From a virus: a DNA stretch of 11,279 bases. Location: UHGV virus genome UHGV-0098134; one strand, written 5' to 3'. The notes beneath the pieces were generated by a model that had not been told where the DNA came from, did not search any database, and saw nothing but the letters and a program-made list of their open reading frames with translations. Made by a program: the position numbers and the translations under genes. Positions 50-11,258 of this stretch are shown here, piece after piece. How positions within the stretch are numbered: position 1 is the stretch's first letter; each line of letters starts with the position of its first letter.

Positions 50-2410
50 TTGGCCAACGATATTATTACCCAGCTTCAGGCGCGTAATGAGACGTTGACG
101 CAGGCAATAGCCCGTTACGGCTCACTCAACGCCAGAACATTGTTAGCTCTCTCTACTCAGCAAGCGACAGTTATCAAACTAACGCAGCGGCTTGCCGATT
201 CCGCTCTCCGCCTGGAGGAAAATAGCCGCAGCCGCGCTAATCTGATGGAGAAAACCCACACATTTGCCGGGCAATTTAGCAAAGTATTCAATGTTGAAGC
301 CCCCGACTGGAAGTTGCCGTATGAGTTCCAGGACAACATGGTCAATATGGCGACCAAAGGTGGGATGAATGATACAACTCGCGAGACGCTCAGCCTTAAT
401 CTGCGCGACTGGAGCATGGATTTTAACCAGCATCAGACCACCTTACAGAACGCAGCCCAAACGCTGATCGAAGGCAATTTGTCGTCGATACAGGATCTCA
501 ACCGTTATATGCCGGAGATCGCCAAAGCTGCCACCGCCACGCGCGAAAGTGCTGAAACATGGGCGAATGCCGCGCTCGCAACCCATGATCGACTGAATAT
601 TGTGCCAGAAAATTTCCACGTCGCGCAAAACATGATGTACGGCATTAGCAAAAGCGGTGGGCCTGCCGTTGCCGAGCAAACGCTGTGGATAGACAAATTT
701 GCAGGTAAAACCGGCGCTCAGGGTCTGGAAGGTATGGCTGAACTGACTGCCGCCATGCAGATCGCCATGAAAAACGGAGCCAGCGCCAGTGCGGCGGCGG
801 AGAATTTCGACCACTTTCTGCAAACCACCTTTTCGAAAAAGACCGATAACTGGTTCGCCAGCCAGGGCGTCGATCTGCAAGGCTCTCTGCTTGAACATCA
901 GCAAAACGGTATGGGTGTTAGCGAAGCCATGACTCATATCGTACAAATGCAGCTTGAGAAGATGAATCCGGCGATCCTAGACACCTTCAAACGCACTATG
1001 CAGATTGAAGATTTATCTGCTCGCAGCAATGCGCTGCAATCGATGGTGACGCAATTTAATCTGGGCGAAATGTTCGGCGATGCGCAAACGGTGGAATTCC
1101 TGGCACCTATGCTGGCGAATATGGAGGAATATCGCCAGTTAAAAACCTCTGCCATGCAAGCCACCAGCAAGAATCTGATTGATGCCGACTTTTCTGCGCA
1201 AATGGCCTCGCCCATTGAACAGACTAAAGCGTTACAGCTGGCGTTAAATGATTTATGGCTCAGCATTGGCTTGCAATTAATGCCGCTGATTGGCGAGCTG
1301 GCACAAAGCCTTACGCCGGTTATTCGTCAGTTCAGCGCCTGGCTACGTGAGCACCCGACACTGGTGCAAAACATCGCGAAAATCGTCGGGGCGATTTGGC
1401 TGTTTAACGGTGCGCTGAATGTTTTAAAGCTGGGCGCGAACCTCATCACCTCGCCGTTTATTCGTCTGGTCGATATCTTCCTGAAAGTCAAGGCAAGTCT
1501 GGCGCTCACAGGCGGGGCAAGTAAGATGCTATCAGCGGTTAAGTCATTGGGTGGCGGCGCAAAATGGCTAATGCAACTGCTTGGTCGTGGCCTGATTGGC
1601 GCACTGAAACAGGTAGGTCAGACCGTCTTCTGGTTGGGTAGGGTTTTATTGATGAATCCCATTGGTCTGGTCATCACTGCGATTGCGGGCGCTGCTTATC
1701 TGATTTGTCGCAACTGGGAGCCTATCTCAAGGTTCTTTTCGACCATCTGGCAACGTATCACCACGGCCTTTGACGGCGGCATTGCAGGAATTTGTCGGTT
1801 GATTCTCGACTGGTCACCGCTGGAGTTGTTCTATAGCGCCTTTTCCAGTGTGATGAATTGGTTTGGTGTCGAGATGCCTGCAAGTTTTAGCGAGTTCGGC
1901 AGCAATCTTCTGGGCAGTCTGGTTGACGGCATAATGAATGCCTTCCCCGCTCTGAAAGGCATTATTGATCAGGTAAAAAACGTCATCCCAGACTGGCTAA
2001 AAACCACGATGGGTATTAGTACAGAAGGATCGGCTACAGCTATTACAAGCACGACTAATACCGCATCCGTCTCCCCCGCGACCGTTGTTCCAGGCGTTGC
2101 CGGTGCGATTTTAACGCCTCCAGTGGGCAAACAACTCGCGCCATCCAGCAAAACGACAACGCCGCCATCGGCACCAGCGGCAAAACCCGCGTCGGCCTCT
2201 TTACCTGGTAAATCCGTAACCAAAGCGGCGACGCTACCTTCCCGTTCCTCAGGAAAAGTTCAGGTGAATTTTTCGCCACAAATTACCGCGCAGAGTAACG
2301 GACAAAACACCACTAAAGAGATTCAGAACGTGTTGACGATGAGTAAACGCGAACTGGAAAGAATGATTAACGATGTAATGGCGCAGCAGCAGCGCCGGGG
2401 GTATGCCTGA
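50..2410 (+). CDS. phage tail tape measure protein (P2 gpT-like)
   Basis: 786-aa ORF. Helical N-terminal half, central hydrophobic/Gly-rich segments typical of tape measure proteins, then a C-terminal Ser/Thr/Pro/Ala-rich tract. Lies immediately upstream of gpU/gpX/gpD-like genes. Start is TTG at 50, the first canonical start after an in-frame TAA at 11-13, so the true start is uncertain (next in-frame ATG at 245). Stop TGA 2408-2410 overlaps the next ATG. Confidence 0.8.
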   Translation: MANDIITQLQARNETLTQAIARYGSLNARTLLALSTQQATVIKLTQRLADSALRLEENSRSRANLMEKTHTFAGQFSKVFNVEAPDWKLPYEFQDNMVNMATKGGMNDTTRETLSLNLRDWSMDFNQHQTTLQNAAQTLIEGNLSSIQDLNRYMPEIAKAATATRESAETWANAALATHDRLNIVPENFHVAQNMMYGISKSGGPAVAEQTLWIDKFAGKTGAQGLEGMAELTAAMQIAMKNGASASAAAENFDHFLQTTFSKKTDNWFASQGVDLQGSLLEHQQNGMGVSEAMTHIVQMQLEKMNPAILDTFKRTMQIEDLSARSNALQSMVTQFNLGEMFGDAQTVEFLAPMLANMEEYRQLKTSAMQATSKNLIDADFSAQMASPIEQTKALQLALNDLWLSIGLQLMPLIGELAQSLTPVIRQFSAWLREHPTLVQNIAKIVGAIWLFNGALNVLKLGANLITSPFIRLVDIFLKVKASLALTGGASKMLSAVKSLGGGAKWLMQLLGRGLIGALKQVGQTVFWLGRVLLMNPIGLVITAIAGAAYLICRNWEPISRFFSTIWQRITTAFDGGIAGICRLILDWSPLELFYSAFSSVMNWFGVEMPASFSEFGSNLLGSLVDGIMNAFPALKGIIDQVKNVIPDWLKTTMGISTEGSATAITSTTNTASVSPATVVPGVAGAILTPPVGKQLAPSSKTTTPPSAPAAKPASASLPGKSVTKAATLPSRSSGKVQVNFSPQITAQSNGQNTTKEIQNVLTMSKRELERMINDVMAQQQRRGYA

Positions 2411-3363
2411 TGTATGCCGTTTTAGGAGAGATTGAATTTAAAGTTGTCACGTTCTGGGATGGCTTTAAGAGCACAATGGGCGTGGATTACGCCACACATG
2501 CCCGTATTGAAGGCAAACCTGGCGTACAGTTTATTGGCGATAAGCTGGATATGCTGGCGCTGGAATTTTCCCTGCACAGCCAGTTTTGCCAACCCACAAC
2601 AGAGCTGAATCGACTGCGTGAAGCCATGCTCGCCCACAAAGCAATGGCGCTGGTGTTTGGCAACGGAGATTATCGCGGCTGGTTTGTAATTACAGAGTTA
2701 ACCGCCACTCACCAGCACACCGATCCCTGGGGCAATGTCATTGCCCAAAGCGGAACAATGTCGCTCCAGGAGTATACCGGCGATCCGAAAAACCCACTGC
2801 TGCCCCCGGCAATTACCACCCAGGAGCCTAATATCGAGGAAAAGGCGAGCGATTTTCCGAATAAGGAGGAGTCCTGGTTAGATCAGATATTGAACGCCAT
2901 TGAAGAAGGTATGCGCAAAGCCAAAGAGATGCTCGATGAACTGGCGCAATCCATTGAAGATATTAAAAAAACAGTGGCAAAAGTGAAAGCACTGATTAAA
3001 GAGGCCAAAGCGTTAAAAGAAAAGTGTGAAAAGATAATTACGTCGTTGAAAAAGACAATCGACGCCATCGAAACCCTGTTTAAACAGCCGATGGATCTGC
3101 AAACGCTGGCAGGACTCCCAAAAGCGTTGTCGGCGCAGATTAAAGCTTTACTGGGTAACATGCCAGGTATCCGGGACTGCGCCAATGACGCCAGTACGCT
3201 GGTTGACCATGCTCAGGCGCTTTTCGATGACATTACCAGCGACATCGCCGAAACGACGTTTGATAAAGCAGCAACGTTGGTTGATCAGGCACGAACAACG
3301 GTACAACGAACCACTCCAGCAGTGAGTCAGTTTGCTGCCGCAACCATTACGAGGAGCTGGTGA
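2410..3363 (+). CDS. tail protein with gpU-like N-terminal domain and long C-terminal coiled-coil extension
   Basis: 317-aa ORF. The N-terminal ~140 aa (MYAVLGEIEF...GKPGVQFIGDKLDMLALEFSLH...GDYRGWFVITEL) resemble the P2 gpU family as recalled. The C-terminal ~170 aa is Lys/Glu/Ala-rich with a heptad-like pattern (EESWLDQILNAIEEGMRKAKEMLDELAQSIEDIKKTVAKVKALIKEAKALKEK...). ATG 2410 overlaps the upstream stop (TGATG). Confidence 0.65.
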   Translation: MYAVLGEIEFKVVTFWDGFKSTMGVDYATHARIEGKPGVQFIGDKLDMLALEFSLHSQFCQPTTELNRLREAMLAHKAMALVFGNGDYRGWFVITELTATHQHTDPWGNVIAQSGTMSLQEYTGDPKNPLLPPAITTQEPNIEEKASDFPNKEESWLDQILNAIEEGMRKAKEMLDELAQSIEDIKKTVAKVKALIKEAKALKEKCEKIITSLKKTIDAIETLFKQPMDLQTLAGLPKALSAQIKALLGNMPGIRDCANDASTLVDHAQALFDDITSDIAETTFDKAATLVDQARTTVQRTTPAVSQFAAATITRSW

Positions 3364-3572
3364 TGCGATACCTTGAACATATCACCACCGACGGCGAACG
3401 CTGGGATAATCTGGCATGGCATTACTATGGCGATGCGCTGGCTTATGAACGCATTATCGCCGCCAATCCACATGTCGCCATTTACCCGGTACTACCTTCC
3501 GGTATTCAGCTCATCATTCCGGTCATTTCCGTTAATAAAACCTTATCGGAGATCCCACCATGGCTGAGATGA
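3363..3572 (+). CDS. phage tail protein X (gpX-like, LysM-type domain)
   Basis: About 70-aa ORF with a LysM-like pattern (GERWDNLAWHYYGD...ANP...LPSGIQLIIP) like P2 gpX. GAGGAG at 3351-3356 sits 6 nt before ATG 3363, which overlaps the upstream TGA (TGATG). The ORF track starts it 3 nt earlier at GTG 3360. Confidence 0.8.
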   Translation: MRYLEHITTDGERWDNLAWHYYGDALAYERIIAANPHVAIYPVLPSGIQLIIPVISVNKTLSEIPPWLR

Positions 3573-4600
3573 GCGTAACTGGTGGCGTCTTTGCCACGCT
3601 CGCGCCCATTTTTACCCTCTGGTATGGGCATAAAGATATCACTTATGACATCACACCCTATGTCATCAGCATCCGTTACCACGACAGCATCAAAAACGAG
3701 TCGGATACCATCGCAATTACACTGGATGACACAGATGGACGCTGGATAAAAGAGTGGTATCCCGGCAAAGGCGATACGCTGGCGCTGCATATAGGTTATC
3801 AGGGGGAAAAGCTGCTCGATTGTGGCCAGTATATTATTGATAAAATTGATATTTCAGCGCCACCTTCCACGGTAAATATTGATGGCATCGCCACTTCCGT
3901 CAATCAGGCGCTGCGCACCCGTAACAGCCAGGGCTTTGAAGAAACGACGCTTTCGGCGATCGCCAGCCGTATTGCCCAAACGCACGGTCTGAAACTGGTG
4001 GGCAAAATCGAGTCGCTCACCATCGACCGGGTAACGCAGTATGGTGAAACCGATGTCGGATTTCTCAAACGTATGGCCAGTGAATATGGTTATGCCGTAA
4101 AAGTGACGACAAAAGAGCTGATTTTTTCACATTTACCCACGCTGCGCTGCCTGGCACCGGTAAAAAAGATCGATCGCAAAGACGTTTCGCATTTCACCTT
4201 CAAAGATACCATTAACCGGATCTACAAGAACGCCACCGTACAGCATCAAAATAGTAAGAAAAAAGAACTGGTTATCTACACTCACGACAGCCAGCAAAAA
4301 CCATCTGTCCGTGGAGTCGGCACTAGTGCCGACACGCTAAAACTGAACAGTCGGGCGACGGACGTTGGCGCAGCACAGGCAAAGGCTAACGCTGCACTCG
4401 ACAGCCACAACGAATATCAGCAAACCGGAACGCTCACAATGATGGGCTGCCCGGAACTGACGGCGGGTAATAAAATCGAGCTAACCGATTTTGGTGTGCT
4501 TTCCGGTCAGTGGCTGATTGATAAATCTACTCACAGTTTTGTGCGCAGCGGCTATACCACCGAAATCGACGTTTCGCGCGGGCCTGCGACCAGCCAGTAA
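3560..4600 (+). CDS. phage late control gene D protein / baseplate hub (gpD-like)
   Basis: 346-aa ORF of gpD/Mu gp44-like size and character, placed after gpX as in P2-type tails. Overlaps gpX by 13 nt. An alternative ATG at 3569 forms an ATGA overlap with the gpX stop. Confidence 0.8.
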   Translation: MAEMSVTGGVFATLAPIFTLWYGHKDITYDITPYVISIRYHDSIKNESDTIAITLDDTDGRWIKEWYPGKGDTLALHIGYQGEKLLDCGQYIIDKIDISAPPSTVNIDGIATSVNQALRTRNSQGFEETTLSAIASRIAQTHGLKLVGKIESLTIDRVTQYGETDVGFLKRMASEYGYAVKVTTKELIFSHLPTLRCLAPVKKIDRKDVSHFTFKDTINRIYKNATVQHQNSKKKELVIYTHDSQQKPSVRGVGTSADTLKLNSRATDVGAAQAKANAALDSHNEYQQTGTLTMMGCPELTAGNKIELTDFGVLSGQWLIDKSTHSFVRSGYTTEIDVSRGPATSQ

Positions 4601-4609
4601 GGAGGCGAT

Positions 4610-5311
4610 ATGAAAGGAGTAACCCGACAAACGGGGATTATCAGCGATATTGACGAAACCAGTATTCGGGTACGGGTCACTCTACCAGAGTGTGACAATC
4701 TGAAGAGCAACTGGCTTGCGGTACTTCAACGCAATTCCCAGGACAATAAAGACTACTGGCTACCGGATATGGGCGAGCAAGTGGAAGTTCTGCTGGACGA
4801 TAACGGTGAAGATGGCGTGGTGCTGGGTGCCGTTTATTCTACGGTTGACACCGCGCCTGTAGCCTCGCGCGACAAACGTTACGTCCAGTTTTCTGATGGC
4901 GCAGCGTTTGAATATGACCGCAGCACGCACCAGCTGACGATCAACGGCGGTATCGAGAAAATCGTGATTGAGGTTATCAACGGTACCTGCCTGACATCGC
5001 CCAACGTTGAGATTAAAGCCCAACAGGTCACCGTGACTTCCGATACCGTCGATGTTAAAGCGACCGATGTCAGCATCGACGCCACTAAGGTCGAGGTTAA
5101 AGCAGCAGCAGTGACGGTAGATGCGCCCATGAGCACCTTTACTGGCAACGTCACGGTAATGAAAAAACTCACCTGGCTTGGCGGGATGGCAAGAAGTGGA
5201 GGCATCGGTAACGCAGCCACGATAACCGGCAATGTCAACGTGATCGGCAACGTTCAGGCCAGCGGCGCATTGCAGGACAGCGGTGGCAACTCCAACCACC
5301 ATTCACACTGA
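4610..5311 (+). CDS. baseplate assembly protein V / central spike (gpV-like)
   Basis: 233-aa ORF. An N-terminal OB-fold-like region is followed by a run of alternating beta-strand residues (VEIKAQQVTVTSDTVDVKATDVSIDATKVEVKAAAVTVDA) typical of a spike beta-helix, and a His-rich C-terminus (NSNHHSH). Strong RBS AAGGAGG 7 nt upstream of the ATG. Confidence 0.8.
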   Translation: MKGVTRQTGIISDIDETSIRVRVTLPECDNLKSNWLAVLQRNSQDNKDYWLPDMGEQVEVLLDDNGEDGVVLGAVYSTVDTAPVASRDKRYVQFSDGAAFEYDRSTHQLTINGGIEKIVIEVINGTCLTSPNVEIKAQQVTVTSDTVDVKATDVSIDATKVEVKAAAVTVDAPMSTFTGNVTVMKKLTWLGGMARSGGIGNAATITGNVNVIGNVQASGALQDSGGNSNHHSH

Positions 5312-5316
5312 CTTTT

Positions 5317-5346
5317 AACCCGCCTGATGGCGGGTTTTCTCTTTTT
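5317..5346 (+). terminator. putative intrinsic terminator between gpV and gpW
   Basis: Perfect 8-bp inverted repeat AACCCGCC (5317-5324) / GGCGGGTT (5329-5336) with a 4-nt loop TGAT, followed by the T-rich tract TTCTCTTTTT. It begins 6 nt after the gpV stop. Confidence 0.55.
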
Positions 5347-5409
5347 AATCAATCAGTTTTCTAAATCGCTTTAATATCTCCACAGCCCGTTCAGGGCGAA
5401 AATACCCTC

Positions 5410-5769
5410 ATGAACACAAAAACACGCCCCTCAACGCTGCACTGGCAACCGGCCTTGCAGCGGCCTGAAGAATACGTCTGCGGGCTGGATGATATTCACC
5501 AGGCGATACACATCATTCTGCGCACACCGCGCGGCAGTGATCCTCACAGACCGCTGTTTGGCAGCAACTTGTGGCACTACATCGATTACCCCATCGAGCG
5601 GGCAATCCCGCATGTGGTACGGGAGTCGGTGGAAGCCATCCGCCAGTGGGAACCGCGCTGTCGGTTGCTGAAGGTGACACCAGTAATCGACGGTGAACAT
5701 CTGACGTTACGTGTGCAATGGCGCGCCGCTGACGGCGTTATCAACTCAACGGAGGTGTTATGGCGATAG
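5410..5769 (+). CDS. baseplate wedge protein W (GPW/gp25 family)
   Basis: 119-aa ORF of gp25/GPW size with a conserved-looking core (HQAIHIILRTPRGSDPHRPLFGSNLWHYID...AIRQWEPRCRL). The stop overlaps the downstream ATG, and GGAGG at 5751-5755 serves the next gene. Confidence 0.8.
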   Translation: MNTKTRPSTLHWQPALQRPEEYVCGLDDIHQAIHIILRTPRGSDPHRPLFGSNLWHYIDYPIERAIPHVVRESVEAIRQWEPRCRLLKVTPVIDGEHLTLRVQWRAADGVINSTEVLWR

Positions 5770-6868
5770 CCGAACCCAATTTTATTGACCGCGATCCTGC
5801 GCAAATTACCAGTGAGATGATTGCGCAATACGAAGATGCCAGTGGTAAAAAACTCTATCCGGCACAGGCTGAGCGGTTGCTCATCGACCTGTTTGCCTAT
5901 CGTGAAAACCTTGTACGCATCGCCATTCAGGAAGCGGCGAAACAAAACCTGGTCGCGTATTCCCGCGCGCCAATGCTGGATTATTTAGGGGAGTTGGTGG
6001 GAGTTCACCGTTTGCCTGCGCAGCCTGCAAAAACGACGTTGCAGTTTTCAGTGCGTATACCAGCAATATCCTGATTCCCCAGGGGACGCGGGCCAGTGCC
6101 TCTGATAGCGTGATGTTCGCCACCGATGAAGATGTTCTGCTTCCGGCCAGGAGTTTGCATATCGCCGTTCCTGCCACCAGCCTCGCAGCAGGTGAACAGG
6201 GCAACGGCTGGCAGCCTGCACAAATTAGCACACTGGTCGACAGGATTGGTCATTATGACATCAACGTAACCAACCTGACTGCGTCAACGGGCGGCTGCGG
6301 TGAAGAGAGCGATGACGCATTGCGCCAGCGTATCCAACTGGCACCAGAAAGCTTTAGTAATGCGGGCAGCTATGGCGCATACCGCTTTCATACGCTTTCT
6401 GTTAGCCAGTCGATTATTGACGTTGCAGTACTGGGGCCGGACGAGGGATTGCCAGAAGGCTGCGTGGAGATCTACCCGCTAACCCTGAACGGACTGCCAG
6501 GAATAGAACTGCTCGCGCAAATCGAACAGGAGGTTAGCAAGGAGAAAAAACGTCCGCTGACCGACAAAGTGAGTGCGAAATGCGCTCTTCGAGTGCCGTA
6601 TGAGATCCGTGCTCAGCTAACGCTGTTTACCACCGCCGATCAGGAGACAACGCTGGCTGCGGCGCGTAAAGCGATTAGCCTCTGGACGCAACAGCGGCAG
6701 AAACATCTGGGGCAGGACATTGTGCCAAACCAGATAATCAAAGTGTTACAGGTCGATGGCGTCTATGACGTTGCGCTGAATATGCCTACAAAACGTATTT
6801 TGCAGGCGCATGAATGGGCGGAATGCACTGCAATAGACGTCACGATTGCCGGAGTCAGCGATGGATAA
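5760..6868 (+). pseudogene. baseplate protein J (gpJ-like), interrupted by a frameshift
   Basis: The N-terminal 104 codons (5760-6074) end at TGA 6072-6074. The rest of the gpJ-like sequence continues in another frame, which is open from well upstream of 6000 through 6868 (ORF track starts it at GTG 6110). Frame 0 reads ...AKTTLQFSVRIPAIS*, and the other frame reads ...YTSNILIPQGTRASASDSVMFATDEDVLL... and later LRQRIQLAPESFSNAGSYGAYRFH, matching gpJ as recalled. A 1-nt deletion or 2-nt insertion near 6050-6068 is implied. Confidence 0.7.
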
Positions 6869-7577
6869 ATTGCTGCCACCGCCGCCGCTTGCCAGCGATG
6901 AGCGTTTTTCGATTCTGGCAAACATCGCCGCCGAGCGTTTTGCCCAACTCGATCTTACGGCGTTGATGGTTTATCTGGTCGACCTGGTTGATGCTTCGGC
7001 ATTACCAGCCCTTGCAGAACAATTTCACGTTCAGGGGCTGGAAGGTTGGTTATTTACCACCGATGAGCGGGAGAAACGCGAGTTAATTAAACAAGCCATT
7101 GAACTGCATAAATATAAAGGAACAATTTGGGCGGTACGGCGGGTGCTGGAAATACTTTCCTTACCCGGAACTATTTCAGAATGGTTTGAATATGGGGGAA
7201 GGGCTTATTTTTTTAAGGTAAATATTACACTAGAGGAAAAAGGATTAAATGAAGATGAATTCAATGCACTTATCACATTAATTCATGAATATAAAAATGT
7301 TCGTTCAAAGCTGGAAAGCATTGTTATTTGGCTTATTAATCGAAGCCCAATACCAGTTATTGGCAGCGCCATGCAAGGAGGGGAAGTCATTACAGTATTG
7401 CCTCCTGTTGCAGAAAGCCTCAGCCAGTCATCAGGAATATTTTTAGCGACGGGTTATTGTGTGGAGGAATATATTCAACTACTACCTTATCAACCCGATC
7501 GACTTACACAATCCCAACCGATGAAGGTCGGCACAGGATACTGGAGCACCGAAATTATGTCTGTATATCCGGAGTAA
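6861..7577 (+). CDS. baseplate/tail protein I (gpI-like)
   Basis: ORF with a gpI-like motif ([18 protein letters not shown], compare the P2 gpI core as recalled). Preferred start is ATG 6861 with GGAG at 6851-6854. The ORF track begins at TTG 6846. Overlaps the end of gpJ. Confidence 0.75.
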
Positions 7578-7579
7578 TA

Positions 7580-9160
7580 ATGGCAAGTGAATTTTTTACA
7601 ATATTAACTGCTGCTGGCAAAGCCAAAATTGCCTCAGCACTGGCCGAGCAAAAACAGATCCGTCTGCAAACTATGGTAGTTGGCGACGGTAATGGTAAAT
7701 ATATCGAACCGACAGAAAGTCAGACCAAAGTAGTCCATGAGGTCTGGCGTGGTCAGCTCAATACATTAAAAATTGCGCCAGATAATCCGGCCTGGGTTAT
7801 CGCAGAAGCGATTATTCCCGAACAAGTCGGAGGCTGGTATGTACGCGAAGTTGGGTTACTGGATACCGACGGCACGCTGGTCGCTATTGGTAAATTTCCG
7901 GAAACCTATAAGCCACGATTACCTGCGGGGGCCAGTAAGCAAATCGTTATACGCGCGGTCATGGAAGTCACCAATACAGACGCGGTGACGCTTTTGATCG
8001 ACCCTTCAGTCGTTGTGGCAACCAGGGAATATGTCGATGATGCGTTGAAAACACATCAGCAATCACGAAATCATCCTGATGCGACGCTGACACAAAAAGG
8101 TTTTACGCAGCTCAGTAATGCAACTAATAGCGATGATGAGACTAAAGCAGCCACGCCAAAAGCGGTAAAAACGGCATATGACCTGGCAAATAGCAAAGCC
8201 GCAACCAGTCATACTCATGCCTGGAATCAGATTACTGGTATCCCTGATGGTACACTGACGCAGAAAGGAGTCGTTAAACTTAACAACACAACAAATAGCA
8301 CCAGTACAACGGAAGCTGCAACGCCAAGTGCTGTTAAAGCAGCGATGGACAAGGCTATTGCTGCGGCACCGTCCAGCCATACCCATGCCTGGGGGCAAAT
8401 AACAGGTATCCCCGACGGTACGCTGACACAAAAAGGGGTCGTGAAACTTAATAATGCGACCAACAGCACCAGTACGACGGAAGCTGCAACGCCGAACGCG
8501 GTTAAGGCAGCGATGGATAAGGCTATTGCTGCGGAAAGCTGTCCTGTAGGGATGCCTATACCCTGGCCATCTGATTCTGTACCTTCAGGCTACGCTCTGA
8601 TGACTGGTCAGACATTTAATAAAACCTCCTATCCCAAACTGGCAATTGCATATCCATCTGGCGTTATTCCTGATATGCGCGGATGGATAATTAAAGGAAA
8701 ACCATCCAGTGGGCGCGCTATATTATCTACTGAACTGGATGGAGTTAAATCACATAACCATACGGGCAGTATTTCTAGTACCAATTTAGGGACAATAACA
8801 TCTACCTCTACGGACTTAGGAACAAAAACTACAGCTTCATTTAATCATGGAAGTAGAAATACAAGCACATCTGGAGAACATACACACCGAATACCAACTG
8901 ATGGTGCAGAAGGTAAAGATGGACCGTCTTTATGGAACAGCCCCAATTCAGATGAGAACTACAGAGAACCTACTGAGTCTGCTGGTAGTCATTATCATAG
9001 TATTACGATTGGCGCCCATGCACATACAATCGCACTGGGAAGTCATACACATAATATTGTGTTAGGTACACATAATCACTCAATTATCATCAATAACACT
9101 GGCAATACAGAAAATACTGTTAAAAACATTGCATTCAATTATATTGTGAGGCTTGCATGA
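7580..9160 (+). CDS. tail fibre protein (P2 gpH/Mu S-like N-terminus, lambda Stf-like C-terminal tip)
   Basis: The N-terminus [18 protein letters not shown]...VGDGNG...EVWRG is the conserved baseplate-attachment domain of P2/Mu-type fibres. The middle carries phage tail-fibre repeats (TLTQKG..L.NATNS...AATP.AVK). The C-terminus (PIPWPSD.VPSGY.LM.GQ.F.K..YPKLA.AYPSG..PDMRGW.IKGKP...HxH...[18 protein letters not shown]) closely matches the lambda Stf C-terminus as recalled. Start chosen at ATG 7580 (GGAG at 7571-7574), while the ORF track extends in frame to 7457 inside gpI. Confidence 0.9.
8210..8545 (+). repeat. in-frame tandem duplication (2 x 168 bp) of the tail-fibre repeat unit
   Basis: Two consecutive 56-codon units, both beginning CAT AC[T/C] CAT GCC TGG (8210 and 8378). 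They encode nearly identical peptides (HTHAW[N/G][20 protein letters not shown][T/A][12 protein letters not shown][S/N][12 protein letters not shown]..) but differ at many synonymous sites. A more diverged third copy lies upstream at about 8078-8209. Confidence 0.75.
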
Positions 9161-9864
9161 ATACTTTTACTTTTTCCGATAACGCACAAATTTTATCTGT
9201 TTTTAATTTTTCACCAGACACACAAGAATTTATTGGTGAGTCCAATGTATATATAGCACCAAACACTGGACTACCGAATTACTGCACATTAACACCACCA
9301 CCACAAAAAATTGCAGGTTTTACTTCTATATGGTCAATTAATAAATGGGAACTTATTGAAGATCATCGAGGCCAAACTGTTTATAACAAAGTTGATGGCA
9401 GCCAGATTATTATTAATAAATTGGGTCAATTGCCTGAAACTGTCACCATCATTTCCCCTACCAGTACTTTTGAGCGTTGGGATGGCGAAAAATGGCAGCC
9501 ATCAATTGATGATGCTAAACAGGCGAAATGTGCCGAAATCAAAACATTGCGCGACTCCATCACTACCGACTACATCATCATCAACGACAATTACTTCCAC
9601 AGTGATACAAGCAGCCGCATCCAACAACTCTCACTCACAAAAATGGGAGCGGAGAAAAAAATTCCGCCAGGTTTAATGTGGAAAACTAAAAATAATGGTC
9701 TGACTGAGTTAACCAACGAAATCGCTGCCCAGTTTGAATCCGTCACAATGGATCACGATATACGCTTGTTTGCCAACGCCCAACGCCATATCGCGGCGGT
9801 GGAAGCTCTGGACGATATTCAGTCGGTACTCGACTACGATTATTCAACAGGCTGGCAACCATGA
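9157..9864 (+). CDS. tail fibre assembly chaperone (Tfa; lambda Tfa-like N-terminal domain)
   Basis: 235-aa ORF. The N-terminal region ([17 protein letters not shown]...[11 protein letters not shown]) matches the conserved Tfa N-terminal domain as recalled from lambda Tfa (FIGEGDAYIPPHTGLP...LVEDHRGKTVY). ATG 9157 overlaps the fibre stop (ATGA). Confidence 0.85.
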
Positions 9865-10316
9865 GTAAAACTACAGTCTGGCTCGCTTGCTATAAAGGGC
9901 GAACAGAGCACCGGGTTATTGCGAGACTGGCTGACTGGCTTACACGCAAAATCACTCGCGGCAGTTATTCCCACTGTGAATTAGCCGTAGCACATGGAGA
10001 AAAGAGTTACCTTTGTTACTCCGCCTCTCTGCGCGATCGAGGCGTTCGTGGAAAGATAATGCCTTTACCGCCAGACAAGTGGGATATGCTGCCGCTCCAG
10101 GTCAGCCTTCAGGATGTAGAAGCGTTTTTCCGTAAACATGATGGCAAAAAATACGACTGGCGTGGAGCCTTAGGAATTATCACCGGCAATAAAGAACAGC
10201 GCGATCGCCTGTTTTGTAGCGAATTTTGTGCCGAATTTCTGCAATTAAAAGAAAGTTGGCGCTATTCCCCAAACCACTTGTACGCTTTAGTTAACAGTTG
10301 GCAATATCAACCATAA
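9861..10316 (+). CDS. hypothetical protein; possible permuted papain-like (LRAT/NlpC-P60-type) Cys/His enzyme
   Basis: 151-aa ORF translationally coupled to Tfa (ATGA overlap at 9861-9864), with host-like GC. The motifs GSYSHCELAVAHG (His) and, about 80 residues later, LFCSEFCAEF (Cys) resemble the YxHWAxY ... NCEHF arrangement of LRAT-like thiol acyltransferases/hydrolases. The family assignment is tentative. Confidence 0.55.
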   Translation: MSKTTVWLACYKGRTEHRVIARLADWLTRKITRGSYSHCELAVAHGEKSYLCYSASLRDRGVRGKIMPLPPDKWDMLPLQVSLQDVEAFFRKHDGKKYDWRGALGIITGNKEQRDRLFCSEFCAEFLQLKESWRYSPNHLYALVNSWQYQP

Positions 10317-10321
10317 ACTAC

Positions 10322-10346
10322 GCCGGGCTTCAAGCCCGGCTTTAAT
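10322..10346 (+). terminator. putative intrinsic terminator after the tail-fibre operon
   Basis: GC-rich perfect inverted repeat GCCGGGC (10322-10328) / GCCCGGC (10334-10340) with loop TTCAA, followed by TTTAAT. The U-tract is short, so it is marginal. Starts 6 nt after the TAA of the 151-aa ORF. Confidence 0.45.
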
Positions 10347-10460
10347 CAGGCTGTATATTCCATCACAAACAAAGCACATGATTATAAATATTCACAGTAA
10401 TTATATTTCCATATTAACCATCCACTGAGTGAATATAGAAGAATTTAAATACAATAACTA

Positions 10461-10488
10461 TTGCATTGTAAATTACATCAAATATAGT
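10461..10488 (+). promoter_or_regulatory. candidate sigma70-type promoter for the downstream low-GC gene
   Basis: TTGCAT (10461-10466), a 16-bp spacer, then TATAGT (10483-10488), about 40 nt upstream of ATG 10530 with AGGGA as a possible RBS. The region is very AT-rich, so chance matches are likely. Confidence 0.3.
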
Positions 10489-10529
10489 TCACTACTTATA
10501 TATTTTGCTAATCGCTACAGGGAAATTAC

Positions 10530-11258
10530 ATGTTTATTGTCTCAGTTCTCAGACAAAGTAAGGATTTCACTATTAAACATGCACAATGGCTTCACCAGCA
10601 GCTGGATGGGTATAATTCCATTTGCATGACGGATGCTTCAGAAATCAAAGGGGTTCAAACCACTCCATTACTGTATAATTGGCCAGGATGGTGGGCAAAA
10701 TTAGAGCTATTTAATCCCGAACATCCTGTTATCGGGAATGAAGATATACTTTATATTGATATTGATACTGTAATCGTCGGTGATATTACACAGTTTACTA
10801 AAATGAAAAAAGTAACATTACTGAACGACTTCTCGCAGCATGGTTCCAATGCTGCTCCTGCGACTGGAATAATGTTCATTCCTGCGGACGCCAAAAAACT
10901 TGTCTGGGAAGAGTTTATGAGATCGCCTGAAACTGAAATAAATTCAACCAGAAAGCCGCCATATCATGGGGATCAGGGATTTATCGGCAGAGTATGTCAT
11001 GACGCTGAAAGATGGCAGGATATTTTTCCAGGACAAATTATCAGTTACAAAGCGAATATAGCGACGCCTAAAATGATAGGCTTTAATCCTGACTTACACG
11101 ATGGTAAAGCAAACGGAGAATTGCCATCGGATGCAAAAATTGTATGTTTTCACGGTTCACCTCGTCCCTGGAACACAGCTCTCCACTGGGTTCCAGGTTT
11201 CAGCATAAAAAACACACTCTGCAGCAAATTTAAACAGCTCAAATATTCTCTTCGGTAA
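10530..11258 (+). CDS. putative nucleotide-sugar glycosyltransferase (GT-A fold, GT8-like motifs); low-GC cargo/moron gene
   Basis: 242-aa ORF with clearly lower GC than the tail genes. Motifs line up with GT8 enzymes such as LgtC and glycogenin as recalled: WAKLELF...EDILYIDIDTVIVGDI (hydrophobic strand plus DxD), GDQGFIG (compare QDQDILN), and C-terminal KIVCFHGSPRPW (compare HxxGxxKPW). Separated from the tail operon by a terminator and an AT-rich promoter-like region. Confidence 0.5.
   Translation: MFIVSVLRQSKDFTIKHAQWLHQQLDGYNSICMTDASEIKGVQTTPLLYNWPGWWAKLELFNPEHPVIGNEDILYIDIDTVIVGDITQFTKMKKVTLLNDFSQHGSNAAPATGIMFIPADAKKLVWEEFMRSPETEINSTRKPPYHGDQGFIGRVCHDAERWQDIFPGQIISYKANIATPKMIGFNPDLHDGKANGELPSDAKIVCFHGSPRPWNTALHWVPGFSIKNTLCSKFKQLKYSLR

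Follow-up and report, generated by a model that had tools for sequence, protein, structure and literature searches.

Permuted NlpC/P60 enzymes and a phage relative

Enzymes of the NlpC/P60 superfamily have a papain-like fold, and their catalysis proceeds via an acyl-thioester on the catalytic Cys. To our knowledge, every characterised clade with a circularly permuted version of this fold handles fatty-acyl linkages, namely YiiX, which binds a fatty acid, LnsA, Tox-Act1, TseH, LRAT/PLAAT and Lnb. LnsA of S. aureus is involved in lipoprotein N-acylation, the Salmonella type VI secretion system effector Tox-Act1 and V. cholerae TseH are phospholipases, LRAT/PLAAT proteins comprise phospholipases A1/2 and acyltransferases, and Lnb of Bacteroides corresponds to DUF4105. 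The active site of the YaeF/YiiX clade comprises a Cys and a His, the latter being oriented by a Glu, together with a signature Tyr, and these enzymes also possess a GD motif and a hydrophobic S1 pocket (Xu et al. 2011, PMC3142127). The S1 pocket of YiiX held a fatty acid, and the B. cereus protein BcPPNE (PDB 3kw0) was crystallised with lysine (PMC3142127); many permuted enzymes carry lipoprotein signal peptides (Xu et al., PMC3142127). Here, we describe an open reading frame (ORF) located at positions 9861-10316 (+ strand) of an 11,279-nt stretch of the virus genome UHGV-0098134, which is referred to as the window. Its product of 151 amino acids is very probably a Cys-His-Tyr enzyme with a circularly permuted NlpC/P60 (papain-like) fold, closest to the YaeF/YiiX clade.

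The ATG start codon of the ORF (9861-9863) shares 4 nt with the TGA stop codon (9862-9864) of the upstream tail-fibre assembly gene Tfa, which results in an ATGA start/stop overlap at 9861..9864 (+ strand, ...CAA CCA TGA GT...) indicative of translational coupling. The length, the position and the overlap had been given exactly in a preliminary description of this DNA. A word-indexed protein search with the ORF found 82 homologues, an exhaustive hidden Markov model search returned 4,438 cluster representatives at E <= 1e-3, 270 of them at E <= 1e-30, and at least 539 relatives are present in viral contigs. In comparison with E. coli-type alleles, the ratio of non-synonymous to synonymous substitutions (dN/dS) is 0.026-0.046 at a dS of 0.76-0.87. 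The number of homologues and the low dN/dS show that the ORF is a genuine gene rather than one that arose by chance. The encoded protein has a mass of 17.7 kDa and a pI of 9.4 and lacks a signal peptide and a transmembrane segment; its maximal 19-residue hydropathy is 0.34, and the N-terminus is not hydrophobic. A lipoprotein reading of the sequence 'WLAC' at residues 7-10 was ruled out, as C10 is not conserved and the segment forms strand beta1.

Assignment of the fold

Scans of the protein against Pfam, NCBIfam and PADLOC gave no match, and a phmmer search of the single sequence against PDB sequences yielded just a chance match to the helicase Sen1. The family profile, searched against the PDB using hmmsearch, matched BcPPNE (E = 5e-4), which is deposited as a 'cysteine peptidase', and more weakly E. 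coli YiiX (PDB 2if6); the SH and CSE motifs were aligned in both cases. For a comparison of profiles, a YiiX-family profile was used in which every homologue included carries the domain PF05708. The alignment of both profiles with hhalign had a probability of 78.9% and an E-value of 1.6e-5 over 94 columns, starting at residue 24-25, and paired YSH with His49 of YiiX, GKKYD with Tyr115 and FCSE with Cys128. Foldseek searches against viral models retrieved uncharacterised phage proteins and one 'Permuted papain-like amidase, YaeF/YiiX, C92' at 2e-5. The protein has a papain-like alpha+beta core, in which the nucleophilic Cys starts a helix that is packed on an antiparallel sheet bearing the His, and the order of the catalytic residues is permuted with H38 being N-terminal to C119. 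The preliminary description had interpreted the spacing of the motifs YSHCELAVAH (residues 36-45) and FCSEFCAEF (residues 118-126) as that of a permuted papain-fold enzyme and proposed HHpred or Foldseek as a check. This interpretation is supported by hhalign, hmmsearch and residue conservation, and the profile methods as well as the Foldseek search of viral models lead to a YiiX-like fold.

One comparison speaks against the assignment: a Foldseek search against the PDB gave nothing significant and recovered neither YiiX nor 3kw0 (best E = 0.17). The active-site geometry has been deduced from alignments and secondary structure. The phage proteins also escape the Pfam model of the clade: PF05708 (Peptidase_C92, DUF830) does not match the ORF protein at E <= 1 and matches one of 47 family members with E = 0.073. 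None of the 82 homologues has an entry in the precomputed Pfam field, in contrast to the listed YiiX homologues, all of which carry PF05708.

Active site and conserved residues

Conservation was assessed in an alignment of 47 homologues with 31-95% identity and in a wider set of 218 sequences. Invariant residues of the 47 homologues are A9, Y36, S37, H38, C39, E40, S56, V62, R63, K65, W74, Y98, C119, S120 and P137. In the wider set, H38, C119, Y98 and W74 are conserved in all sequences, E40 in 99%, and S37, S56, G61 and R63 in 98%. Thus, the Cys/His dyad is invariant in 47/47 and 218/218 sequences, and the loss of these residues among homologues, which the preliminary description had named as evidence against its reading, was not observed. 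The putative catalytic His, H38 (codon 9972-9974), is part of the motif Y36-S37-H38-C39-E40 on strand beta2 (9966..9980, + strand), which aligns with YSH of YiiX (His49) and SH of 3kw0. The putative nucleophile C119 (codon 10215-10217) lies in the motif F118-C119-S120-E121 (10212..10223, + strand) at the N-terminus of helix 119-126, which aligns with Cys128 of YiiX and CSEF of 3kw0. The motif G95-K-K-Y98-D-W (10143..10160, + strand) contains the signature Tyr of NlpC/P60 proteins, Y98 (10152-10154), which aligns with Tyr115 in the GKPYD sequence of YiiX. By analogy, Y98 would contact the oxyanion and the acyl head group and would be the equivalent of Gln19 of papain; the role of Tyr115 in YiiX is described in PMC3142127.

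The third triad residue is absent from the phage family. Glu64 of YiiX and BcPPNE aligns with S54 (hhalign) or with position 55 (HMMER), both of which are part of a strand and turn with the sequence S54-[S/A]55-S56-x-x-D59-x-G61-V62-R63-x-K65 (10020..10055, + strand). Position 54 is Ser in 90% of the 218 sequences, and position 55 is Ser in 81% and Ala in 19%, with Ala55 being found in this protein. Without an acidic third triad residue, the activity of the enzyme could be low or different, which also weighs against the function proposed below. LRAT can do without the third residue, and PPPDE1 lacks it (PMC3142127); E40, which is located two residues after His38, may stand in for the missing Glu. 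The GD motif at the start of beta1 is likewise missing; the 47-homologue alignment has the consensus VxLAxYKG before and within beta1.

C39, C52 and C123 are conserved in 79%, 77% and 66% of the sequences, respectively, and are replaced by Val, Ser or Ile in 16-28% of homologues; judging from these substitutions, they look like core residues that are neither catalytic nor metal-binding. The idea of a metal site or a multi-Cys centre was therefore ruled out, and C119 alone is essential.

In YiiX and BcPPNE, the S1 pocket is formed in part by the beta1-beta2 insertion (Xu et al. 2011, PMC3142127). In the phage protein, this insertion contains residues 18-33 (RVIARLADWLTRKITR; 9912..9959, + strand), which are modelled as a basic amphipathic helix (residues 19-32) with a hydrophobic moment of 0.67-0.84 and a net charge of +3. 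The segment is a candidate lid or membrane-interface element and the one indirect hint of a hydrophobic S1 pocket for a fatty-acyl chain, and it is poorly predicted with a predicted local distance difference test score (pLDDT) of 50-59.

Comparison with other permuted enzymes

The phage family shares the Cys, His and Tyr with YiiX and BcPPNE, but sequence identity to the phage protein is just 19%, and the phage protein is shorter with 151 residues compared to 186-214 residues in the solved chains. Further differences are the absence of the GD motif, the replacement of Glu64 by Ser or Ala, the near-invariant Glu of the HxE sequence and the phage-borne location in late operons, together with the lack of detection by PF05708. 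E. coli YiiX is exported and begins with the signal peptide MKNRLLILSLLVSVPAFA, whereas the phage protein has no signal peptide. LnsA, Tox-Act1, TseH, LRAT/PLAAT and Lnb are structurally far more distant from the phage protein than YiiX and BcPPNE. Those from bacteria undergo export or secretion and have their site of action outside the cytoplasm, with LnsA requiring a membrane partner, whereas the phage protein has no export signal. In addition, the genes of these permuted acyl enzymes are located in housekeeping or toxin-immunity loci and not in a phage late operon. Members of the LRAT/PLAAT (H-RAS-like suppressor) family have a C-terminal membrane anchor and an NCEHF motif around the catalytic Cys; this motif is absent from the phage protein, which does not fit the characteristics of that family. 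Permuted NlpC/P60 proteins of eukaryotic viruses, such as G6R of vaccinia virus and the picornavirus 2A H-box/NC proteins, show distant similarity and do not share the genomic context.

PPPDE/DeSI peptidases of eukaryotes raise the idea of an anti-defence isopeptidase, which could, for instance, strip host-conjugated ubiquitin-like modifiers from tail proteins. We consider this very improbable, since YiiX is a much closer relative of the protein than PPPDE is, searches gave no PADLOC or anti-defence family, the genomic context offers no support and the wide distribution of the family far exceeds what a counter to a rare system should show.

Proposed function

The function that we favour, with slightly less than even confidence in the whole statement including substrate class and role, is that of a YiiX-like thiol enzyme, which acts on a fatty-acyl bond of the envelope late in infection and serves as an accessory egress factor. 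Judging from the sequence, the ORF, which is the final gene in the tail-fibre operon, is translated late, with ribosomes reinitiating at the stop codon of Tfa. Due to the lack of an export signal, the protein would accumulate in the cytoplasm. An acyl-thioester would form on Cys119, and a fatty-acyl group, bound as ester or amide in a membrane lipid, lipid A or a lipoprotein, would be hydrolysed or transferred; this substrate class is proposed by analogy with every characterised permuted NlpC/P60 clade. The late envelope role is suggested by homologues that adjoin holin, endolysin or spanin genes in several independent lineages and by the restriction to Gram-negative hosts. The enzyme would reach the envelope after holin triggering, or it might attack the inner leaflet earlier. 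It would thereby weaken or remodel the envelope or cell debris and would not be a fibre-specific assembly factor.

A bolder version, which we regard as rather unlikely, holds that the family is an unrecognised class of egress factors of Gram-negative phages, namely holin-released YiiX-like acyl-hydrolases or transferases acting on outer-membrane lipid, lipid A or lipoproteins. Such enzymes would dismantle the outer membrane or keep the progeny from being trapped on debris and would be an analogue of LysB on a papain-like fold. LysB of mycobacteriophages is a lipolytic enzyme from the phage lysis cassette, which attacks an outer-membrane linkage and thereby completes lysis. It belongs to the serine esterases of alpha/beta-hydrolase/cutinase type, and its substrate is mycolyl-arabinogalactan; the analogy to the ORF protein is hypothetical and functional only, and both proteins are not homologous. 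In a more unusual variant of the proposed chemistry, the enzyme may fatty-acylate the fibre or Tfa.

Genomic context in close relatives and the link to Tfa

The close context was analysed in 84 loci, which comprise five annotated records and the closest viral contigs; many of them are closely related, so the counts are not independent. In 74 of the 84 loci, the ORF begins before the stop of the preceding gene on the same strand, with an overlap of 4 nt in 56 of these; an overlap of this type is also found in at least 52 of 80 divergent loci. The upstream gene has a DUF4376 domain in at least 51 of 82 loci and Caudo_TAP in 15 of 82. Downstream, a D12 methylase (14 loci), an RlaP nucleotidyltransferase (six), a tail sheath gene (five) or a hexapeptide transferase (four) is found, as well as glycosyltransferases, Com and others. 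In phage SuMu, gp51 lies between Tfa and com, after which a methylase-like gene follows. In the E. coli prophage, Tfa and the ORF are followed by a nucleotidyltransferase and a slipin gene on the opposite strand and then by host genes. Of 5,426 complete genomes, 196 contain this related prophage. In E. coli NZ_CP110511.1 (L002 4481-5728), the annotation lists its tail-fibre gene as two pseudogene fragments, with both Tfa and the homologue of the ORF being intact, and one relative has an IS1 insertion nearby.

Tfa proteins have a variable, fibre-binding N-terminus and a conserved DUF4376 C-terminus (North et al. 2019, cited in PMC7882524). Among enteric alleles, the ORF is 93-95% identical where the DUF4376 half of Tfa is 83-89% identical, and the N-terminal half of Tfa is swapped freely, with identities down to 15-26%. 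The divergence of the ORF thus tracks the generic DUF4376 half, which argues against a receptor-specific function, and receptor-specific co-evolution with the fibre was judged unlikely.

The position next to Tfa would fit an accessory enzyme of the tail fibre or Tfa or a virion-borne enzyme, which binds DUF4376 or the fibre and modifies either the fibre, by proteolytic maturation or fatty acylation, or the envelope of the next host during adsorption. This is unlikely in our view, even though most loci have the start/stop overlap directly 3' of a Tfa- or fibre-type gene, DUF4376 is the prevalent upstream domain with which the ORF diverges in parallel, and the Tfa of Mu remains bound to the fibre (North 2019, cited in PMC7882524). 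Moreover, the gene lies between fibre and sheath genes in a divergent P2-like module and is coupled to tail protein X in the L152 lineage, and the structural relatives of the ORF protein include MARTX RID, which is reported to acylate lysines (PMC10924143). However, gene overlaps are generic in the operon, several lineages have the gene next to lysis genes or elsewhere, and both Mu, which has a DUF4376 Tfa, and P2 are outside the phage records that carry the gene. No evidence for such an enzyme came from virion proteomics, and the SuMu proteomics paper contains nothing on gp51.

No fusion of the family to a fibre protein or Tfa was found among 231 proteins, and the ten longest family members have no fused Pfam domain and no similarity to Tfa; most of their extensions look like gene-calling artefacts. 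The C-terminal extension of one of the family members (P0202) contains a lipobox (LALAGC) followed by a spanin/lipoprotein-like sequence and may be a read-through into a lysis gene, and that of another one (P0195) has a metalloprotease-like HEHVH motif (HExxH-like).

Divergent contexts and lysis genes

The proposed role in egress draws on more divergent loci, the search for which was seeded with a 6-sequence alignment, as a 16-sequence version was too variable. A Pseudomonas-type P2-like lineage (about 16 loci) has the order N (capsid), M (terminase), L (adaptor), X, ORF, holin/anti-holin (phrog_126, 4e-29), endolysin, Rz-like spanin, R, S, V, W and J, and the start of the ORF overlaps the stop of tail protein X by 10 nt. 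In Pseudomonas phage pAN, the ORF (gp21) is followed by phrog_3108 and an Rz-like spanin gene, and in three further lineages it is located between fibre-like genes and a CHAP, GH108 or GH19 endolysin. Altogether, the next gene encodes an endolysin in about 25 of 77 divergent loci, and adjacency to lysis genes occurs in at least five lineages. All named hosts are Gram-negative and almost all of them are Proteobacteria; the family is mostly found in temperate phages and prophages. A few other copies have a ribonucleotide reductase gene as neighbour, stand alone in jumbo phages of Ralstonia, are part of a prophage accessory/toxin-antitoxin region or are located on a Tokpelaia chromosome next to genes for electron-transfer flavoprotein (ETF). 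The latter is a lone homologue with 56% identity on a contig of Candidatus Tokpelaia sp. (L211 4501-4944), which lies between the electron-transfer flavoprotein/ETF-QO genes and a gene for an FAD monooxygenase; no phage genes are nearby, and it could be a domesticated copy or a remnant.

Endolysin neighbours in several lineages and the membership in the NlpC/P60 superfamily are also compatible with an auxiliary peptidoglycan or peptide amidase, which would use canonical NlpC/P60 chemistry alongside the endolysin or as a peptide-directed cysteine peptidase. The deposition of lysine-bound 3kw0 as a peptidase and the initial reading of TseH as an endopeptidase point in the same direction; nevertheless, we regard this function as quite improbable.

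Several observations weigh against the proposed role as an envelope-directed egress factor. In the window and most close relatives, which are Mu-like and P2-like prophages of enteric bacteria and Pasteurellaceae, the gene follows Tfa away from lysis genes, and the downstream neighbour is variable cargo (D12 methylase, RlaP nucleotidyltransferase or glycosyltransferase) or a tail sheath gene. About 16 of the endolysin-adjacent loci belong to a single lineage, and homologues also occur in contexts that are related to neither tail nor lysis, i.e., in the jumbo phage RP12, the prophage accessory region and the Tokpelaia chromosome. Phages carrying the gene keep their spanins, so the ORF protein is no spanin replacement. 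The adjacency to lysis genes may reflect position rather than function, since the boundaries downstream of fibre genes and at lysis cassettes are typical insertion sites of accessory genes. Finally, no study of the family was found in the literature and likewise no biochemical or genetic data on any member.

The late operon and the variable region downstream

The window corresponds to the late tail region of a prophage of the Mu/P2 type. It encodes the tape measure protein (50-2410), a 317-residue protein at the position of the Mu DNA-circulation protein (2410-3363), which is annotated as 'phage tail protein' in the E. coli relative, X (3360-3572), D (3560-4600), V (4610-5311), W (5410-5769), J (5760-6868), I (6846-7577), the tail fibre (about 7580-9160) and Tfa (9157-9864, + strand). 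The latter consists of a variable N-terminal and a conserved C-terminal DUF4376 half and matches Pfam DUF4376 (3.9e-13) and Caudo_TAP (5.7e-5) as well as PHROG tail-fibre/assembly families (up to 1.5e-90). Short gene overlaps are usual in this operon (-1, -4, -13, -10, -23, -4 and -4 nt); therefore, the ATGA sequence marks operon membership and not a special link to Tfa. Of the earlier proposal that the ORF is expressed with the tail-fibre operon, membership in the late operon was thus retained, whereas a special functional tie to Tfa cannot be derived from the overlap.

Five nucleotides past the stop codon of the ORF is a GC-rich hairpin (GCCGGGCTTCAAGCCCGGC, 10322..10340, + strand) with an 8-bp stem containing seven GC pairs, which likely is the end of the late operon and the boundary of the conserved backbone. 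Nucleotide homology to the E. coli prophages ends at 10340, the last base of the hairpin; thus, the ORF is the final gene of the conserved late operon and is followed by variable cargo. A 213-nt AT-rich spacer (GC content about 0.34) separates the hairpin from a glycosyltransferase-like gene (10530-11258), whose 242-residue product belongs to phrog_1962 'glycosyltransferase' (moron category, 9e-99) and had no match in Pfam, NCBIfam and PADLOC. The site 3' of the ORF (10317-11258) looks like a variable cargo hotspot, which in the E. coli relatives is occupied by the opposite-strand genes for the RlaP-type nucleotidyltransferase and slipin.

The boundary position raises the question of a moron or lysogenic-conversion gene, which would be expressed in the lysogen and remodel lipids or lipoproteins of the host, thereby serving host fitness, excluding superinfection or masking receptors. 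The gene is often less than 2 kb from the prophage end, adjoins a moron-type glycosyltransferase in the window and belongs to the PHROG moron category; it is mostly carried by temperate phages and prophages, is intact in prophages with broken J or fibre genes, and the copies in the accessory/toxin-antitoxin region and on the Tokpelaia chromosome would also fit. However, a promoter-like site and a spacer of its own were not found, the gene overlaps the upstream late gene in most loci and the hairpin is located 3' and not 5' of it. Its GC content of 0.47 is intermediate among the adjoining late genes and differs from that of the AT-rich spacer and the cargo gene, and the operon position is the same across very divergent phage types. 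The lack of an export signal would be unusual for a surface exclusion protein, and the receptor-specific half of Tfa is not tracked. A moron function therefore appears distinctly unlikely.

Some further features of the window were noted. The J gene is frameshifted near 6041-6053: residues 1-98 of E. coli J match 5760-6053 (100%) and residues 97-371 match 6041-6865 in another frame (98.5%). The frameshift indicates either a pseudogene, and thus a defective prophage, or a sequencing error. The identity to the E. coli prophage is 96% in the baseplate genes and 95.9% over 3107-8874 as a whole, compared to 84.7% over 8995-10340, which places a mosaic breakpoint within the tail-fibre gene (8874-8995) and makes the fibre tip, Tfa and the ORF a separate recombination block. 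The mechanically called tail-fibre ORF begins with a TTG at 7457 and shares sequence with gene I. As the Phage_tail_fib domain does not begin until residue 42, translation probably initiates at the ATG at 7580. A segment of about 45 residues (SHTHAW[NG]...AAMDKAIAA) is duplicated almost perfectly within the fibre. A megablast search of the region against isolated phages gave no match.

Annotation and significance

PHROGs assigns the ORF to phrog_1128, which is labelled 'enoyl-CoA hydratase/carnithine racemase-like' and placed in the category 'moron, auxiliary metabolic gene and host takeover'. The same label has spread through the records of SuMu gp51, Pm86, RP12 and Pasteurellaceae without support from fold or profile comparisons. 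An enoyl-CoA hydratase (ECH)/carnithine racemase-like protein, as given in GenBank and PHROGs, has hardly any likelihood: its sole basis is inherited annotation (SuMu gp51, Pasteurellaceae proteins, RP12 and phrog_1128), and it was ruled out because no member matches the ECH domain and no match to a crotonase fold was obtained. The label should be replaced by 'YiiX-like permuted papain-fold cysteine hydrolase'.

The fold and the chemistry of the YiiX-like enzyme are known, whereas the large phage-specific clade, which is missed by Pfam and misannotated, is new. Further new features are the altered active site, the absence of an export signal and the conserved location next to fibre-chaperone or lysis genes within late operons. 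If the assignment is true, thousands of phage and prophage genes annotated as 'hypothetical' or 'enoyl-CoA hydratase' could be re-annotated as YiiX-like permuted papain-fold thiol enzymes, and the poorly understood bacterial YaeF/YiiX clade would gain a phage branch with a tractable phenotype. In the standard scheme, lysis by phages of Gram-negative bacteria depends on holins, endolysins and spanins, the last of which may be replaced by disruptin. If the proposed function is true, a conserved lipid-directed accessory enzyme of late operons would be an added component of this scheme, and the enzyme could serve as an outer-membrane-active partner for endolysins.

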